A stretch of DNA of 64,000 nucleotides. Origin: a virus. The stretch spans positions 1 to 64,000 of the IMG/VR virus record IMGVR_UViG_3300023082_000002. One strand, written 5' to 3'. This document shows positions 6,533 through 62,372 of the stretch, one piece after another. The first letter of the stretch is position 1; every line of letters starts with the position of its first letter. The position numbers were made by a program, and so were the translations under genes. Below the pieces are notes generated by a model, which did not search any database, was not told where the DNA came from, and saw only the letters and a list, made by a program, of their open reading frames with translations.

Positions 6533-6581
6533 GCATACAACGGGGGATGGTCCTTGATAGGGATCGTCCCCCGTTGTATGC
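6533..6581. terminator. long (~22 bp) hairpin upstream of the tape measure gene
   Basis: GCATACAACGGGGGATGGTCCT / GGGATCGTCCCCCGTTGTATGC. Confidence 0.55.
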
Positions 6582-22227: not shown

Positions 22228-22270
22228 GCAAACCCCCCGCAGATACGCTCTGCGGGGGGTTTGCTTTCTT
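22228..22270. terminator. intrinsic terminator between the convergent arms
   Basis: Perfect 16-bp stem GCAAACCCCCCGCAGA/TCTGCGGGGGGTTTGC followed by TTTCTT. Confidence 0.9.
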
Positions 22271-42546: not shown

Positions 42547-42575
42547 ATAGTACGCTATCTCGCATCTAGAGTCAA
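42547..42575 (-). promoter_or_regulatory. SigA-type promoter
   Basis: TTGACT-17 bp-TACTAT at a gene boundary. Confidence 0.8.
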
Positions 42576-43321
42576 GACTTATCTGCGAGGGCTTTTACGT
42601 ACGCAACGTCAACCTTGAACGAGACAGCAATATCTTCGGGTTCAAAGAATCCAGTCGCCAAGGCGTTGATGATCTTCTGGTCAACCTCAACTCCGAGTGA
42701 GACCATAGAAGCGACAGGAGTTTTTGCGACACGCTGCTTCGGAGCCCTAGTGGTCTTCTCGGGATCGAAGTTCGACGACCCCTGCTTGTTGGCCTTCTCG
42801 TACTCCCTGGAGCCAGGCAGGGGTGGGTTGTACTTGTACCCTGGCGTAGGCTCGAACTCGCGCTCACCCTTGCGAATCGCGGCACGCTTCATCTCCTCAA
42901 CAACAACCTCGTCGGCTGTAATGAAGTAATGAGACGACATCATCTGAATGCTTTCAGCGATGCCTCGCATGCGACCCTTGTAGTACTCGAGCTCCATCTG
43001 ATCGCGCTTTGTTTGGAACTCATCGAACGAGGAATCAAGACTGTCCCACAGCTTTTCAAGTAGCGACTTGCCGACACGCAGCATGGTGTACCTCTGTCCT
43101 CGTTCGTCTCGTTCTTCCATGAATTCATTTGACTTACCCTCGTCAGGGCAGCGCGTGAGATGCTCGTCCCATGCGTACTGCGCCATAGTCACAGAGGCGT
43201 GCGCGGTGCTGTAGAAGCAGTCGAAGCGGGGGCACTTGAGACTGAACGGATGGGTGCCGCGAGTCATTGTGAGGTTGGGCTCGATCGGCGCCTCTGTCGG
43301 TGCGTGTGCCACGTAACTCAT
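42572..43321 (-). CDS. hypothetical protein (N-terminal C2H2-like, C-terminal HTH-like)
   Basis: CPRFDC...H...C; PEDIAVSFKVDVAYV. Confidence 0.6.
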   Translation of the reverse strand: MSYVAHAPTEAPIEPNLTMTRGTHPFSLKCPRFDCFYSTAHASVTMAQYAWDEHLTRCPDEGKSNEFMEERDERGQRYTMLRVGKSLLEKLWDSLDSSFDEFQTKRDQMELEYYKGRMRGIAESIQMMSSHYFITADEVVVEEMKRAAIRKGEREFEPTPGYKYNPPLPGSREYEKANKQGSSNFDPEKTTRAPKQRVAKTPVASMVSLGVEVDQKIINALATGFFEPEDIAVSFKVDVAYVKALADKS

Positions 43322-43575
43322 TCCTTCACTTCCGATTCAAACACAAGGAATGATTCGTGCTCTGAGTACTTGCGTGTCCATGTCTTTTTCTTTTCGACAG
43401 AAAGATTGTAGCCAGCATCTTCTACCCACGGTTCGCCTTCGAGCTTTTTTTCAGACGGCGTACGCTTGAGGCACTCTTTGTCGAGCTCGGTCTTTGCTAC
43501 CTCCAGGGTTACATAGACCTCATAGAAGTGTCGACCATCCCAGCCCATATCTACGACTGCAACATAGACCTTCAT
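43318..43575 (-). CDS. hypothetical protein
   Basis: MKVYVAVV; start reassigned from the ORF track. Confidence 0.6.
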   Translation of the reverse strand: MKVYVAVVDMGWDGRHFYEVYVTLEVAKTELDKECLKRTPSEKKLEGEPWVEDAGYNLSVEKKKTWTRKYSEHESFLVFESEVKE

Positions 43576-43610
43576 GCTGGCGCTTCCCTTCTTGTCATTG
43601 TCTAGGTAGA

Positions 43611-43972
43611 GCTTCACCCCCGGCCAAGGACTAGCCGGGGGTGAAGCGGTGAGGGGTTTGGAGTACAGGTTGTCTTGCTGCCAGCTCCTGGTTAGCCTTA
43701 CCCGCACGCCGGTGATCAGGACACCGGGGGTCACATGCAGAGCAATCGCTGGCCCCTCTGTTAACGAGGCAGGGACTCGGGCCTCGAACGGTTACCTAGT
43801 TAAGCGGGTACGAGTCGCCCCTAGTTCTCGTACCCTGTTGGCACGCACCCGATGATGAGCACGTATTGACTGACTGCGCAAGCTCTTCCCAAGCACAGGC
43901 AGTCAAGCGAGACACACTTTCAGTGGGTCATGACTCCACTGGTTACCACGGCAGTGTCTCGCTCGCTTGGGA
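43611..43972 (-). ncRNA. candidate structured non-coding RNA (~360 nt)
   Basis: Intergenic gap fully tiled by stems (see findings), ending in a perfect 14-bp hairpin 43611-43647. Confidence 0.55.
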
Positions 43973-44461
43973 TCAGTACTCGGCGGGCTCGGGAGCGTCG
44001 CCGCCGAAGCCGTCCTCGTCCGCACCAGGCTGGGGTGCCTCGCCGGCGGCCTCACCCACGGGCTCGGCGTCTTCCTTGAGGTGGTTGTGACCGAGGTCCG
44101 AGTGGTCGATCTTGCCGTGCAGCTCCGCGGCCTGGTCGGGCGACATCGCGTTGACCTGCGAGAGGGGCGCACCGTGCCGGTCGATCAGGTGCTTCTTCAC
44201 GCGGGTTGCGTCGACCGGCTTCATCTTGACCTGCTTGAGCTTGACGTCCGGGACCGGAGCCTCCTCCAGCTCGAGGACATCATCGAGCTCCAGGAGGTCC
44301 ATCTCGCGACGACCTCGCGGCTTGAAGCCGACGCCCGCAGTGGACGCGACCTCGATCTTGCCCTGGACCTGCTCGGTCGAACCGTCCTCGCGCTTGACGG
44401 TGAGGAGAACGACGTCCCCGGACTTGGCCTTCTCCTGCAGTGTTTCGATTGCGACGGTCAT
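43973..44461 (-). CDS. highly expressed protein with Sm/SH3-like N domain and His-rich C domain
   Basis: Extreme codon bias, AGGAG RBS; helix-then-beta pattern VLLTV...DG...VQGKI...LELDDVLELE; HLIDRH...H...H..LGH.H. Confidence 0.6.
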   Translation of the reverse strand: MTVAIETLQEKAKSGDVVLLTVKREDGSTEQVQGKIEVASTAGVGFKPRGRREMDLLELDDVLELEEAPVPDVKLKQVKMKPVDATRVKKHLIDRHGAPLSQVNAMSPDQAAELHGKIDHSDLGHNHLKEDAEPVGEAAGEAPQPGADEDGFGGDAPEPAEY

Positions 44462-44554
44462 TTGATGCTCCTGGTTGATGTGTACCTGTTGGCGGGTCGG
44501 GTCGACCGTATCACGGATGGACGTCCCCTGTACAGCCCTTGTTCAACGATTCCG

Positions 44555-47473
44555 TTATCGGTCCGTCAATTTTTTCTCAAGGTGATGAATGACCTTGACC
44601 AGGTCTTCGTCTCCGTCGACTCGAACGGTATCCATCCCGAACTCTTCAGGCGAACTGGTTCGGATACCGACGCCCATGAGGGTGATGTTCTGCTGCCTAC
44701 ACTTGGCGATCTGAGTCTGAAGAACTTCGAGCTCCTCGTCATAGTTTGCCGCAGGCATTGCGCCGTCAGTGTAGTACAGAATGATCTTGTCGGTTGCCGG
44801 AGTCCGCTCAACAGCCTTGCGATAGTACTCTAGCGTATGACCGTCGACGTTCGCCTGAAGTGGTCCAATGTTCTTCAGAGATTCGCGAGCACGGTCATCC
44901 CATTGATCCTGAAATGACTTGATCTCATATATTTCCATGCTGAGATTCTCGTACGTACCATCTCCACTGTCGAGTGCACTATGTGCATACACAGCGAAGT
45001 CAATACCAACTCGTGAACACAGTTCGGCCTGAGCCGTGACCGCCCGTTTCGCGAGCTTCATATTGCGAGCACCAGTGAATGACATGCTGGCCGAGATATC
45101 AACCCCGATGACGACGGCGTACGACTTCTTGCCGGGCAAGATAGTCTTCTTGAACATGCGTGGATCGTTGAATGGAGCGCGCTTGGCGAGCGACCCACCC
45201 CGAATCTTTCCCGACTTCAAGTTCTTCTGATGACGAGCACGCTTGTTATCATCGAAGACACGACGCGTAACCTGCAATGCTTCACCTAGCAAAGACTCAT
45301 CAGGCTCAAAGTCACCACGCAAGCCGATGTTGCGAAGGGACTTTTCGCTGTAAAGAACCTTGTCCCCATTAGTGCCACGCCATGCGTTGTCAGAGTCAGG
45401 GACATCGGTGTATCGGTGAACATTGACACCGACAATGTTCACAGGAGCTGTATCAAAGTACAGGCCTTGCTCGATCGCAACTTCCATTGCGGCCTCTGCG
45501 GTACCATCGTCCACTGATTCGCCAAGCGAATACTCCGCAGACTCCTCGGCGTGATGGTCGCCGTGATGACCAGTCACTGCCTCCACGTACTGCGGAACAG
45601 AATCAGCGGAGCCATAATCTATTTCCGCTTCCAATTCCTGGCCCCAAGGATCGCTGCCTGTGTCGGATGAGCTATCCTCCATGTCATTCGGCTTGTCGGT
45701 GCCGAGCTCATTACTTCGTGTCTCAGATGCTGGGTCAGCATCGTCAGACCGATCCGCCTCCAGGGAATCCTCGCCGCCGACTGCTCCCTGATCTTCGGGC
45801 GCCTCGTCAGTGGCGAGTCCACTATCTGTGTCAGTGTCACCCCCAGACCCGTCGGGCTCTCGTGGATCACCGTAACCACTTTCAGTCTGGAACTCTTGTG
45901 AATCATCCCCACTGCTACGACTGTCTTCGTCATCTAGTCCTCCTTCTTCCTCCGAGCTGTCTGTCTCGCCAGTTCCTGATCCGCCGGACTCATCTTCGAT
46001 ACCTTCTGGATCGACCTCCGCTGCTGACTCTTCGGTCGACGAATCTTCCTCAGTCGCGTCACTGGTTACTCCCCTGTTAGCTTCCGCTGTGTCTCCAGGT
46101 ACGCTCTCGCCTGCTCCCTCTGGATTCGGTGACGATCCTCCGTTGTCAGGTTGATCGTCACCGGACTCGCTGTCGTCTTCGGGTACTCCTGTGCTGTCGC
46201 CGGAGCCAGAGGGAGAACCGTCATCATCTGTGTCAGGCTGTTCGTCCGTCTCGCCTGCGCCGCTGTCAACATTCGACGCATCGCTCGGAGTGTCGTTCTC
46301 TGGAAAGGCCTCCTCAGTCTCAGGGGAATCCTCGGCATCATCAGACTGAGCATCCGATAAATCTGAATGGTCAGACGATCCAGAATCGCCTGCCACCTCC
46401 CCTGTATCCTCGCCCTTGCCAGCGCCTTGGTCATCGTCAGCTTCATCCTCGGTATCTCCTTGTTCTTGGTCGGAAGATTCTTCCGATGATTCGTCATTGT
46501 CCTGACTATCGGACTCTTTGTCCGGTTCAGTTCTATCCTGCTTATCTTCGGACTCCTGGTCCTGCGGCTCAGGCTGCGGCTCGTCATCCTCTGTAATGTC
46601 GTCGGCCTCAGCAAAGAAGCCGAGCTCTTTGCCGCGCATCAAGGCATCGAAGGACAGGTTGAACACGTCACTCACCGAGCGTGCAGTCTTGGCACCTTCG
46701 GCAGTAGCAGTAAGCTCCGAGTCATAGCATGCCGCGACCACCTCGGGTGCAAAGAAGTCGTTGACCTCCCAGCGGGACGCTACTGCATACAGAGCAACAA
46801 TCAGTTGAGCATTGAGGGGCGCGTCGATCCATCGCGCAACCGAGCCGTCTGCCTGCTCGACACCCTCGGTAAAAGCTCGGCGTGCTCTGACCTCTCGCAT
46901 CTTGCGTGTACCCTTGCGAGCCAAGAACATGCGCTCGTCGATGCGAACGTCCTCAAGAATGTTCATGATCTGACCCAGGTACTCTGAAATAGAGTTAGCC
47001 AGTAGTATGAACGAATCGCCACCCTGCTTCCCCTGGTACTTCTCCATGCGCCTGTTCATCTTAGCAACAAAGTCGTCACCCTTGAATGCGACAGCAGCGG
47101 AGAGGGCCTTTGCTCGATCCTTGTCTGTGAAGGGAGCGAACGAGTGGTAAGCAATGTGTGCGATCTCGTGATAGATGCCAGAGAGAATATCTTCACGCAC
47201 TCTACACGCAGGGCATAGCTGCTGAAGGGTGACGTCATCTCTCTTGTCACACACGCTGCGGTCATGCTTTGTGTCGTCGGCTAGTGACAACGGGGGACGG
47301 TAGAAGATCGTCGTGCCGTCCGTGTGGGGAAACCCTGCGGTCACCTGGATGCGGACGGCGGGCTCCCCCGTAACGGCGCGAGCGTAGGAGGTGAGGCCGG
47401 GCTGCATCGTGCGAAAAGCTGCCAGAGCTTTTTGGGCTCTAGCAACATGGTCGCGGTCAACTGTCTGACTCAT
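44555..47473 (-). CDS. CobT-like vWA protein (HExxH N domain, long acidic linker, C-terminal vWA)
   Basis: HEIAH; NILEDVRID; several hundred D/E/S/G-rich residues; MIDAS DISAS and YTDG.P. Confidence 0.88.
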   Translation of the reverse strand: MSQTVDRDHVARAQKALAAFRTMQPGLTSYARAVTGEPAVRIQVTAGFPHTDGTTIFYRPPLSLADDTKHDRSVCDKRDDVTLQQLCPACRVREDILSGIYHEIAHIAYHSFAPFTDKDRAKALSAAVAFKGDDFVAKMNRRMEKYQGKQGGDSFILLANSISEYLGQIMNILEDVRIDERMFLARKGTRKMREVRARRAFTEGVEQADGSVARWIDAPLNAQLIVALYAVASRWEVNDFFAPEVVAACYDSELTATAEGAKTARSVSDVFNLSFDALMRGKELGFFAEADDITEDDEPQPEPQDQESEDKQDRTEPDKESDSQDNDESSEESSDQEQGDTEDEADDDQGAGKGEDTGEVAGDSGSSDHSDLSDAQSDDAEDSPETEEAFPENDTPSDASNVDSGAGETDEQPDTDDDGSPSGSGDSTGVPEDDSESGDDQPDNGGSSPNPEGAGESVPGDTAEANRGVTSDATEEDSSTEESAAEVDPEGIEDESGGSGTGETDSSEEEGGLDDEDSRSSGDDSQEFQTESGYGDPREPDGSGGDTDTDSGLATDEAPEDQGAVGGEDSLEADRSDDADPASETRSNELGTDKPNDMEDSSSDTGSDPWGQELEAEIDYGSADSVPQYVEAVTGHHGDHHAEESAEYSLGESVDDGTAEAAMEVAIEQGLYFDTAPVNIVGVNVHRYTDVPDSDNAWRGTNGDKVLYSEKSLRNIGLRGDFEPDESLLGEALQVTRRVFDDNKRARHQKNLKSGKIRGGSLAKRAPFNDPRMFKKTILPGKKSYAVVIGVDISASMSFTGARNMKLAKRAVTAQAELCSRVGIDFAVYAHSALDSGDGTYENLSMEIYEIKSFQDQWDDRARESLKNIGPLQANVDGHTLEYYRKAVERTPATDKIILYYTDGAMPAANYDEELEVLQTQIAKCRQQNITLMGVGIRTSSPEEFGMDTVRVDGDEDLVKVIHHLEKKLTDR

Positions 47474-52633: not shown

Positions 52634-53079
52634 CCTTCGTACGGCCCCTCGGTCTCGTCGATCGTGGCAACGTACTCGTCGTCCTTCTTCTCGCACTCCG
52701 GGCCGATGCCGTAATAGCGCGAACGAGGATCGGTCAGCTCCTTGCCGCACGAGCAGCAACGACCGATGACGTTGGCGTACTCCCGCTGATACTTCACGGG
52801 GTTCAGGGCAGCCATGAGGAGGGCGGGCTCGGCGAGGAGGTTGAACCAGTACATCTGCCCGTCAGGGTAGACGATGAACGCGATACGGTACTCTTCACCG
52901 TGCTGGGTCTGCACCTTGAGGCAGTCCTTGAACCGTCCGTAGGTGGGTCGCGTCACCCGAATGAAGACATAGTCCTCGTCATCACTGTCCCGGCAGGCGA
53001 AGCGTGCGCTCGGGATGGTGTCGAGAATCATGGCTGGAATCATGGTCCGCGTACGGTTGGCAGGCAGTTCAGTATTCAT
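52630..53079 (-). CDS. DUF6011-like protein
   Basis: GRCCSCGKELTDPRSRYYGIGPEC. Confidence 0.75.
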   Translation of the reverse strand: MNTELPANRTRTMIPAMILDTIPSARFACRDSDDEDYVFIRVTRPTYGRFKDCLKVQTQHGEEYRIAFIVYPDGQMYWFNLLAEPALLMAALNPVKYQREYANVIGRCCSCGKELTDPRSRYYGIGPECEKKDDEYVATIDETEGPYEG

Positions 53080-53109
53080 ATTCTTCTCCTCGGTGTAGAG
53101 GGTTAGGGT

Positions 53110-53345
53110 GTCGGCTCGTGTACTTCCCATACACGAGCCGACGCAACGGCGTTCAGTCCATTGCACAGAGCAGCCTATGTCTGCTGCTCATGACTCGGCA
53201 CACAGGTTCTCGGAGCCATGATTCTGGCGAGGGACAATGACGAACCTCGCTACATGACCAGCGCGCCAGCGCTCCCGTGTGCCGAGACATGAGCCCCGGT
53301 CCAGCTGAAACGTAGACAGCTGGACCGGGGTGACATGCGACCTAG
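53110..53345 (-). ncRNA. candidate structured RNA / hairpin array
   Basis: Five consecutive stems filling the intergenic gap. Confidence 0.45.
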
Positions 53346-53356
53346 CTGAGACTAGA

Positions 53357-54253
53357 TCAGGCCTTGCGAGCGCCTCGCGACTTGCCGTCCGGGTGCTCCT
53401 CCGCCTTGACGGCGACGATGCCCTCGATTGCCGTCGGGCTGTTGAAGAGGCGGGCGCTGATCGCACCAGAGCTCGGCTTGTCGTCGCCGTACTCCTCGCT
53501 CTTCTTGTTCGCGATCTCGTTGACGGTGAGGAAGTCACCGGACTGCAGGTCCGCGAACGCGCTCAGGATGTGCTTCTCGGTGGACCGACGCGGGCCGCTG
53601 TACGAGGGGCCACCCGAGCTTGCGACCGTGCGACCGGCGGCGAGCTTGGCGACCTTCTTCGCGTCAGCGGTGATCGACTCGGGCACGTCGACGCCGTCCT
53701 CGAGGGCGATGAGCTGGTTGGCCTGCTCGACCAGCTGGGGGACCAGGTCGTTGACCTGCTCGACCCAGTTCTCACCGACACCCTCGGGGACCTTGGCCGA
53801 CGCGACCGACTGCGCCGCGACGAGCGTCGCGATCTTGCTGACGAACGCCTCGGTCGGGTCGGTCGGCTTGGCCGGAGCCTTGGTCGTGCCAGCCGACAGC
53901 GACTTGCGGATGAGGACGTACGACTTGCCGAGCGGGCCGTTGTCGTTCATCAGAGCCTCGCGCATGGCGGTCTCGATGCTGTCACGAGCTGCGTTCTTGT
54001 TCTTCTGACCGTCGAGCGCACGGTACGCCTCGGTGGTCTTGGCGAGCGCCTCGACGCTCAGATCGCCGGTCGTGGTGTCGGCCTCGGGAAGGATCGAGTC
54101 GACCACAGCGGTGAAGGACGAGATGTCGACCGGAACCTCCGGCTTGGCCTCGGCAGCAGGTGCCTCGGTCGAGGGCGTGTCGGTCGGAACAGCCTCGTTC
54201 GACTCGACGGGAGCGGACTCGGAGGCCGTGGCCTCGGGATTGCGACGTGCCAT
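53357..54253 (-). CDS. highly expressed protein with C-terminal winged-helix-like domain
   Basis: Extreme codon bias; LTVNEIA...PSSGAISARL. Confidence 0.7.
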   Translation of the reverse strand: MARRNPEATASESAPVESNEAVPTDTPSTEAPAAEAKPEVPVDISSFTAVVDSILPEADTTTGDLSVEALAKTTEAYRALDGQKNKNAARDSIETAMREALMNDNGPLGKSYVLIRKSLSAGTTKAPAKPTDPTEAFVSKIATLVAAQSVASAKVPEGVGENWVEQVNDLVPQLVEQANQLIALEDGVDVPESITADAKKVAKLAAGRTVASSGGPSYSGPRRSTEKHILSAFADLQSGDFLTVNEIANKKSEEYGDDKPSSGAISARLFNSPTAIEGIVAVKAEEHPDGKSRGARKA

Positions 54254-54324
54254 GATGATTCTCCTGTGTGTGAAGGGTGGCGCACTAGGCAAGGTGCCTC
54301 GTGATCGGGTGGGTTGGCGTTCCC

Positions 54325-59443: not shown

Positions 59444-59491
59444 CCCAACCAGCCTAGGCTACCCTAACTAGGGCAGCCTAGGCTGGTTGGG
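59444..59491 (-). terminator. perfect 17-bp hairpin after the early wHTH gene
   Basis: CCCAACCAGCCTAGGCT / AGCCTAGGCTGGTTGGG. Confidence 0.7.
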
Positions 59492-62329: not shown

Positions 62330-62372
62330 ACACAAAGAAACACCCCGCTCGGCCAAAGAACAGGGTGTTTCT
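62330..62372 (-). terminator. intrinsic terminator
   Basis: AGAAACACCC/GGGTGTTTCT stem with T-rich tail, just downstream of the stop at 62392. Confidence 0.6.

Follow-up and report, generated by a model that had tools for sequence, protein, structure and literature searches.

Stable hairpins directly behind or between the cistrons of highly expressed phage and bacterial messages can stabilise those messages, as seen at the RNase III sites of phage T7 and in the stem-loops of polycistronic operons. In Actinobacteria, no Hfq has been recognised (PMC6789036), while WYL domains, which bind nucleic-acid ligands, are enriched there (PMC6789036). Non-coding RNA regions of 400-500 nucleotides (nt) are needed for replication in the phages Alma and LadyBird (PMC7157519). 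Here we describe a locus of an uncultured soil phage, known from IMG/VR virus record IMGVR_UViG_3300023082_000002, in which a gene for a 162-amino-acid (aa) protein with a predicted Sm/Hfq fold is followed by a long, partly structured non-coding gap. We analysed 64 kb at the start of this 76,093-bp record and refer to this DNA as the window. We read the gap RNA as a lineage-specific, partly structured 3' untranslated region (UTR), or intercistronic spacer and stabiliser, of a highly expressed gene, and we give this favoured reading roughly an even chance of being correct. A preliminary description had instead proposed a candidate ribonucleoprotein (RNP), made of an Sm-like protein and a cognate non-coding RNA (ncRNA). 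Its observations at the sequence level were largely right and its suggestion of an Sm fold is supported; the RNP reading is unsupported among distant homologs.

The gene is transcribed from the minus strand. The gene and the elements behind it, in the order of transcription, are as follows.

43973-44461, minus strand: gene of the 162-aa protein, predicted Sm/Hfq fold, PHROG 6646 match
43802-43968, minus strand: RNA domain 1, predicted four-way junction of about 170 nt, starting 4 nt past the stop codon
43965-68/43802-05, minus strand: closing stem of domain 1
43905-43964, minus strand: hairpin H1 of domain 1, an 11-bp stem with an inner hairpin at 43921-41
43868-43904, minus strand: hairpin H2 of domain 1
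43842-43865, minus strand: hairpin H3 of domain 1, with three G-U pairs
43806-43835, minus strand: hairpin H4 of domain 1
43648-43801, minus strand: middle stretch ('domain 2'), predicted stems at chance stability
43611-43647, minus strand: terminal GC-rich hairpin, 14 perfect pairs (43611-24/43634-47)

The stop codon (43973) is separated from the next credible start (ATG 43575) by 397 nt without coding potential, in agreement with the gap of about 400 nt first reported. All open reading frames (ORFs) inside the gap have a negative codon score and none has a Shine-Dalgarno sequence. For the next ORF, the score per codon is -0.045 in the GTG extension and 0.211 in the core; we place the start of the downstream gene at ATG 43575 because the extension scores so far below the core. 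The 162-aa gene has the second highest codon-usage score of the 82 called genes and a G+C content at third codon positions of 0.87 (median 0.68), which bears out the very strong codon bias noticed earlier, and its own leader, estimated at about 90 nt, measures 93 nt. The view that the genome is otherwise tightly packed was overstated: a crude gene call leaves 26 gaps of at least 120 nt, ten of them exceeding 300 nt, although some of these may contain small genes.

To describe the structure of the gap, folding energies were compared to those of shuffled sequences and expressed as z-scores. Region 43590-43975 (386 nt) on the minus strand folds at -167 kcal/mol with a z-score of -5.2, and none of 100 shuffles folded as well, while the plus strand has a z-score of -2.65. 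The terminal hairpin contributes most of this score. Without it (43650-43972, minus strand) the z-score is -2.0 and 3 of 100 shuffles are as good. The first 173 nt (43800-43972), which hold domain 1, have a minimum free energy (MFE) of -73 kcal/mol on the minus strand and a z-score of -3.3, a stability that none of 200 shuffles matched. On the plus strand the z-score is -2.0, and the transcribed strand has an advantage of 10 kcal/mol. The MFE pairs of this part have a mean probability of 0.91, and an alternative pairing within domain 1 joins 43965-72 with 43887-94. The middle 155 nt (43648-43802, minus strand) have a z-score of -0.66, and 45 of 200 shuffles are as good. Hence, of the dense structure that had been described over about 360 nt, the first ~170 nt and the terminal hairpin stand and the middle 155 nt, which are at chance, do not. 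Each of the ten stems of the preliminary description, the 14-bp hairpin and the mutually exclusive pairing 43866-72/43900-06 among them, is perfectly complementary in minus-strand RNA at the positions given there. Stem ACGUGCUC/GGGUGCGU is restricted to minus-strand RNA because three of its pairs are G-U, as had been pointed out. Against 393 genome segments of the same size, after adjustment for GC content, the region has a z-score of -2.6 and three segments are equal or lower (top 1%). The region is more structured than the genome average on the transcribed strand; it is neither uniformly tiled with structure nor unique in the phage.

The terminal hairpin as folded comprises 16 pairs (43611-26/43632-47) at -34.7 kcal/mol and is followed by CUCUACCUAG. 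It possesses the GC-rich stem of a canonical intrinsic terminator and lacks the U tract, and a terminator scan did not call it. It probably forms the 3' end or blocks exonucleases, or else acts as a weak terminator.

Searches for relatives of the RNA placed it in no known family, and the preliminary description had recognised none either. Rfam 15 gave no match in the whole window at gathering thresholds, and its E-value mode returned miRNA-like hairpin look-alikes to the terminal hairpin only, far below threshold. ARAGORN detected no tRNA or tmRNA. The gap RNA, searched whole and in halves by blastn, had no match even at E <=5 in 50,697 phage records, the gap sequence is not repeated elsewhere in the genome, and the exact pattern of hairpin H1 had no match in IMG/VR. 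The pattern of the terminal hairpin matched eight contigs, all unrelated. A tblastn search with the neighbouring proteins of relatives found no remnant of a decayed gene in the gap, and this origin was dropped.

The protein family is widespread. By tblastn we found the 162-aa family in 97 phage records, all of them from Gordonia, Tsukamurella and Rhodococcus phages, including the types Monty, Woes, Kvothe/ASerpRocky, GTE7, TIN3, Perlina and ReqiDocB7 at 31-43% identity; a profile search gave 264 clusters of the family, formed at 50% identity. No true kin turned up when IMG/VR, JGI metagenomes and GTDB genomes were scanned with the protein, alignments of its family or the 249-aa neighbour. Closer homologs (P0002-P0007) have 46-75% identity; the comparison of 3' gaps covers eight lineages with 31-43% protein identity. 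The gap lengths are listed here.

ReqiDocB7: 65 nt
Perlina: 79 nt
ASerpRocky and Kvothe: 95 nt
Monty and Woes: 149 nt
GTE7: 173 nt
TIN3: 406 nt

In every one of the eight lineages a strong hairpin closes the gap, and most of these hairpins precede a U-rich tail. The layout in the relatives is that of a leader, the gene, an optional small hairpin and the strong terminator hairpin, and one to three small genes are found at the corresponding place. Across the eight lineages the terminator hairpin and the short motif that follows can be aligned and nothing else can; the gap of the window aligns with none of them. We take the gene from this to be a self-contained unit, probably monocistronic, in which the stretch from stop codon to terminator varies freely. 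The conserved structure that a cognate pair should keep downstream of homologs was not found among these distant homologs (31-43% identity), and none of the eight gaps resembles the RNA of the window.

Such variability could also mean that the gap is an evolutionary leftover, either a mosaic or recombination junction or what is left of a lost gene, in which the terminal hairpin alone is functional and the other stems arise from the 59% G+C and chance. The middle 155 nt at chance, the z-score of merely -2.0 once the hairpin is removed, the unrelated contents of gaps ranging from 65 to 406 nt, the presence of one to three small genes here in relatives and the orphan status of the sequence among 50,697 phage records are all compatible with this origin. 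We nevertheless consider it unlikely, though it deserves real weight, as domain 1 has a z-score of -3.3 (0 of 200 shuffles), a well-defined ensemble and a 10 kcal/mol advantage on the transcribed strand, the neighbouring proteins of relatives reveal no gene remnant by tblastn, and a phage would rarely carry 360 bases without use.

The TIN3 gap is longer by 320 nt, and in this additional stretch lies an RNA motif of about 105 nt that is absent from Rfam 15. It recurs in unrelated phages and is found in unannotated gaps (300-465 nt) of five actinophage lineages, at the following positions.

TIN3, L013:2058-2168: behind the 162-aa gene homolog, shortly before the terminator
Brandonk123, L023:1198-1308: between hydrolase and head-tail adaptor
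Pupper, L024:1187-1296 (also SCentae/CherryTomatoes): behind the major head protein gene
Skog, L025:1009-1119: behind the major head protein gene
Nocardia phage NTR1, L026:993-1100: in a 300-nt gap

The motif is built from two stems and an inner hairpin, with a conserved loop CGAAUGUCGGAAUAG and a tail AGCAGCAAG. Its consensus (alignment A6, five distinct sequences) contains 20 pairs, 12 of them with compensatory changes, and 99% of cells are paired. None of 500 shuffles reached the observed values, and slid controls pair at 28-48%. A scan of IMG/VR with the motif loop returned isolates only. The middle stretch of the window resembles the motif by eye (GCCAGC...GCUGGCAGCAAG); we rejected it as a diverged copy, with a best local score to covariance model R1, built from the five sequences, of 4.9 bits in 43600-43980 and no match of the model at E <=10 in the right place of the window. 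The protein family is missing from four of the five motif-bearing phage records searched, and five protein-bearing phages are without the motif. Long gaps behind highly expressed actinophage genes can harbour RNA modules under selection, and the Sm-fold protein is no partner of such modules.

Under the reading of the gap as a structured 3' tail, the 162-aa gene is a highly expressed unit with its own leader, and its untranslated 3' part has expanded in this phage to about 360 nt, consisting of the 170-nt four-hairpin domain, about 155 nt of unremarkable stability and the -35 kcal/mol hairpin lacking a U tract. The same RNA would become an intercistronic spacer if RNA polymerase continues into the 85-aa and 249-aa genes. 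Its action would be in cis, with domain 1 and the terminal hairpin setting the 3' end and shielding the upstream message from 3' exonucleases; the mRNA of the Sm-fold protein would thereby stay abundant relative to the downstream genes, and a stable 3'-derived RNA fragment may remain. Several lines of evidence support this reading. The gap is non-coding and holds no trace of a decayed gene, its RNA is more stable on the transcribed strand with an H3 stem that relies on G-U pairs, no promoter is predicted inside it, and the genome has other structured tails. The layout of leader, gene and strong hairpin is maintained in the relatives sampled. The covarying module located before the terminator in TIN3, and behind major head protein genes elsewhere, offers a suggestive analogy.

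Five points weigh against this reading. About 40% of the structure originally claimed folds no better than shuffles. A hairpin without a U tract may fail to terminate actinobacterial RNA polymerase, and therefore the 3' end may come from processing, or may not form. A cis-acting stabiliser rarely needs 360 nt, and most relatives manage with gaps of 65-173 nt. No homologous RNA was found in our searches, hence the gap RNA has no covariation support. Finally, a search of sequencing runs found no RNA run that contains the sequence.

We next consider the protein. The 162-aa protein matches PHROG 6646 (E 2.9e-25), a family whose function is unannotated. It has no Pfam match at E <=0.1, including Hfq (PF17209), LSM (PF01423) and WYL, no Pfam match was found among 80 family members at E <=0.01, and a profile search against PDB sequences returned the RimP C-domain only (E 0.79). 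The AlphaFold2 model calculated with an 80-sequence alignment has a mean predicted local distance difference test score (pLDDT) of 88.9. Residues 1-70 (pLDDT 92-98) are modelled as a helix (5-14) followed by five strands (17-23, 29-39, 44-48, 55-57 and 62-67), that is, the N-terminal helix and bent five-stranded antiparallel sheet of an Sm fold. Residues 4-68 best match Hfq, as shown by Foldseek (3hfo, target-normalised TM-score 0.78, rmsd 1.9 Å) and by VIA superposition on 1kq1 and 3hfo (Z 8.8, rmsd 1.4-1.5 Å over 58-60 residues). Within 1-2 Z units of Hfq, VIA also ranks WYL domains, the RimP C-domain, YaeO, GerQ and designed SH3 barrels. From this model we predict with high confidence that the N-domain (residues 4-68) adopts the Sm/Hfq fold, and the earlier proposal of an Sm/SH3-like N-domain is upheld by a model whose top matches are Hfq chains in both programs. 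A G-x-I-E-x-A segment loosely recalls the Sm1 motif by eye.

The C-domain (about residues 75-128) is modelled as three short helices lined with histidines (pLDDT 90 when modelled alone). The His cluster noted in the preliminary description is conserved across the family alignment, with H91, H96, H115, H125 and H127 invariant and H120 nearly so. This domain has no known fold in our searches: Foldseek found nothing at E <=0.001, VIA reached a Z of 3.8 at best and matches in the Atlas were generic helices. An acidic, disordered tail follows. Matches in L004-L006 are of low complexity, fall on this tail and are not kin. A metagenomic GlnE (glutamine synthetase adenylyltransferase, L007:973-3870) has the exact 9-mer HLIDRHGAP in common with the phage C-domain, probably by chance; this was the sole occurrence of the 9-mer seen outside the family.

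These features bear on the proposal that the RNA acts in trans, perhaps after being cut from the 3' UTR, and is bound by the Sm-fold protein in an RNP serving as chaperone, sponge or decoy. The predicted fold and strong expression of the gene would suit such a role, as would the position of the RNA immediately adjoining the gene on the same strand, the well-defined domain 1 and the likely actinobacterial hosts, which are without a known Hfq (PMC6789036). However, the family occurs without this RNA in 8 of 8 lineages inspected, and the other long gap, that of TIN3, holds a different motif, which is present in four phages without the protein and absent from five with it. RNAs bound by Hfq or Sm proteins carry a single-stranded U-rich tract, such as the Sm site AU4-6G or a 3' U tail behind a hairpin, or else ARN repeats. 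In the 397-nt RNA, runs of 3 or more U, AU(3-6)G Sm sites and runs of at least 3 ARN triplets are all absent. The protein itself has no Pfam Hfq or LSM match, and the Sm fold is also used for single-stranded DNA (ssDNA) sensing in WYL domains and in other roles. We consequently judge the RNP proposal quite unlikely. As a broader speculation, PHROG 6646 could be a phage analogue of Hfq for Hfq-less hosts, namely an Sm-fold ring with a metal-binding His domain that is abundant early and binds structured 3'-UTR-derived RNAs, including the adjoining 170-nt domain, to reprogramme RNA stability or pairing in Actinobacteria; we regard this as a long shot.

A search with Pfam PF00436 found no canonical single-stranded DNA-binding protein (SSB) in this phage, Monty, TIN3 or Perlina. 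These four phages carry clamp, DnaQ and helicase, and the annotation of Monty lists clamp, DnaQ and helicase and no SSB. The abundant, acidic-tailed Sm-fold protein is a candidate for a non-canonical ssDNA-binding protein, with a possible role in ssDNA binding on a par with one in RNA binding.

The locus sits in the early and replication gene block, and its surroundings on the minus strand are as follows.

44555-47473, minus strand: gene of a CobT/VWA-like protein, 972 aa
44462-44554, minus strand: leader of the 162-aa gene, 93 nt
43318-43575, minus strand: 85-aa gene, with ATG 43575 after AAGGGA (43590-43585)
42572-43321, minus strand: 249-aa gene

By tblastn, the 249-aa gene confirms synteny with the relatives. 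The CobT/VWA-like protein is longer than its relatives (about 635-675 aa), and the extra length is an acidic, Ser/Asp/Glu-rich low-complexity insert at about residues 290-640. The 76,093-bp record has direct terminal repeats and was assembled from a leaf-litter metagenome. A search of sequencing runs found the DNA in the source leaf-litter run alone, as one contig with no variants.

The leader contains a candidate extended -10 promoter, read from the sequence as TGTACA (44534-44529), an 18-nt spacer and TGA-TACGGT (hexamer 44510-44505), with the -10 hexamer embedded in a small palindrome CCGTGATACGG; AGGAG is found at 44472-44468. A strict sigma-70 scan did not call this candidate. TGnTAnnnT is present at the matching place in the leaders of relatives (90-165 nt), and in homolog leaders L001, L008, L010 and L011 this extended -10-like element lies within a small palindrome, as at 44505-44534 of the window. 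This pattern suggests a regulated promoter kept across the phage group.

Downstream of the gap, no promoter is predicted between the terminal hairpin and the 85-aa gene, and the 85-aa and 249-aa genes have none predicted before 42575-42547; they probably rely on read-through for this reason. The RNA might then be a 5' leader of these two genes, an attenuator, riboswitch-like or processing element that controls expression beyond the hairpin. In keeping with such a leader, the MFE structure pairs CUAGGUA (~43794-43800) with UACCUAG (43602-43608), enclosing domain 2 and the terminal hairpin near the next ribosome-binding site. But Rfam gave no riboswitch or leader match, domain 2, which is nearest to the downstream gene, is not significantly structured, and relatives show a short conserved motif at this place instead of a long leader, making this role decidedly improbable.

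The location in the early and replication block, together with the Alma and LadyBird precedent (PMC7157519), raises the further idea of a replication element, in which the transcript primes DNA synthesis or the inverted repeats act as DNA. We find it very improbable indeed: the cluster A elements adjoin parABS in temperate phages and none was seen here, and the strand asymmetry and G-U pairs favour RNA folding and give no link to priming.

Other gene ends of this phage are also structured. The intergenic region 53090-53360 (minus strand) comes after a codon-biased gene of 311 aa (53357-54292). It has a folding energy of -144 kcal/mol and a z-score of -8.0, its structure comprises two perfect 13-14-bp hairpins together with a long, interrupted rod, and blastn found no relative among phages. 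It is far more structured than the gap RNA behind the 162-aa gene, and 53076-53461 is the strongest of the three low segments in the genome comparison. Very strong perfect hairpins, mostly without a U tract, stand at gene ends at 59444-59491, 6533-6581, 22228-22264, 53110-53142 and 62336-62372. As 53090-53360 is the stronger case and other gene-end hairpins lack the tract, structured tails are a habit of this phage and are not peculiar to the 162-aa gene. Behind the 23-bp hairpin at 59444-59491 stands CTCCTAGTTTGTACCAG. It is similar to (C)TAGTAGTACCAG, a motif that Monty, Woes, TIN3, GTE7 and ReqiDocB7 conserve immediately past the terminator. Judging by sequence likeness, the two may represent a promoter or processing signal common to the phage group.

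The interest of the locus lies mainly in the Sm-fold family, carried by phages of Hfq-less hosts, and in the covarying motif. RNA chaperones of Actinobacteria are an open question, and this family, strongly expressed and conserved in roughly a hundred phages of Gordonia, Tsukamurella and Rhodococcus, provides a concrete candidate, by its predicted fold, for RNA or ssDNA binding. The gap RNA is less compelling, being an orphan that is partly structured and best taken as an extended 3' tail. In several actinophages the most expressed genes are directly followed by long, structured stretches of non-coding sequence, one with covariation support, and such stretches point to an under-studied layer of post-transcriptional control in actinophages.

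Compared to described systems, the predicted N-domain has the N-terminal helix and five bent strands of Hfq and Sm-like proteins and superimposes on their core at nearly full length. It differs from Hfq in having no sequence-profile match and no evident YKH-type Sm2 motif, and in the addition of a 60-residue His-lined helical domain and an acidic tail. The Sm-like barrel of WYL domains (PafBC, BrxR, CapW, DriD) is similarly close in the model (Z 7.0-8.4 over 70 residues), whereas the 162-aa protein has no helix-turn-helix, WCX domain or Pfam WYL match and is a small, stand-alone, highly expressed phage protein, unlike the WYL transcription factors. With the RNA-based origins of extrachromosomal cluster A mycobacteriophages (PMC7157519), likened here by description only, the gap has in common a transcribed non-coding region of a few hundred nt in an actinophage genome; those origins are needed for prophage maintenance and lie beside parABS, a context not present here. 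The motif of TIN3/TIN4, Brandonk123, Pupper/SCentae/CherryTomatoes, Skog and NTR1 is, like the RNA of the window, found in a long gap behind a strongly expressed gene, although the latter is no detectable member of model R1. Lastly, at 360 nt the RNA is far longer than the stabilising 3' or intercistronic hairpins of highly expressed messages and its stabilising role is putative, but it resembles them in that its stable hairpins come immediately after a highly expressed cistron, form on the transcribed strand and lie in non-coding sequence.

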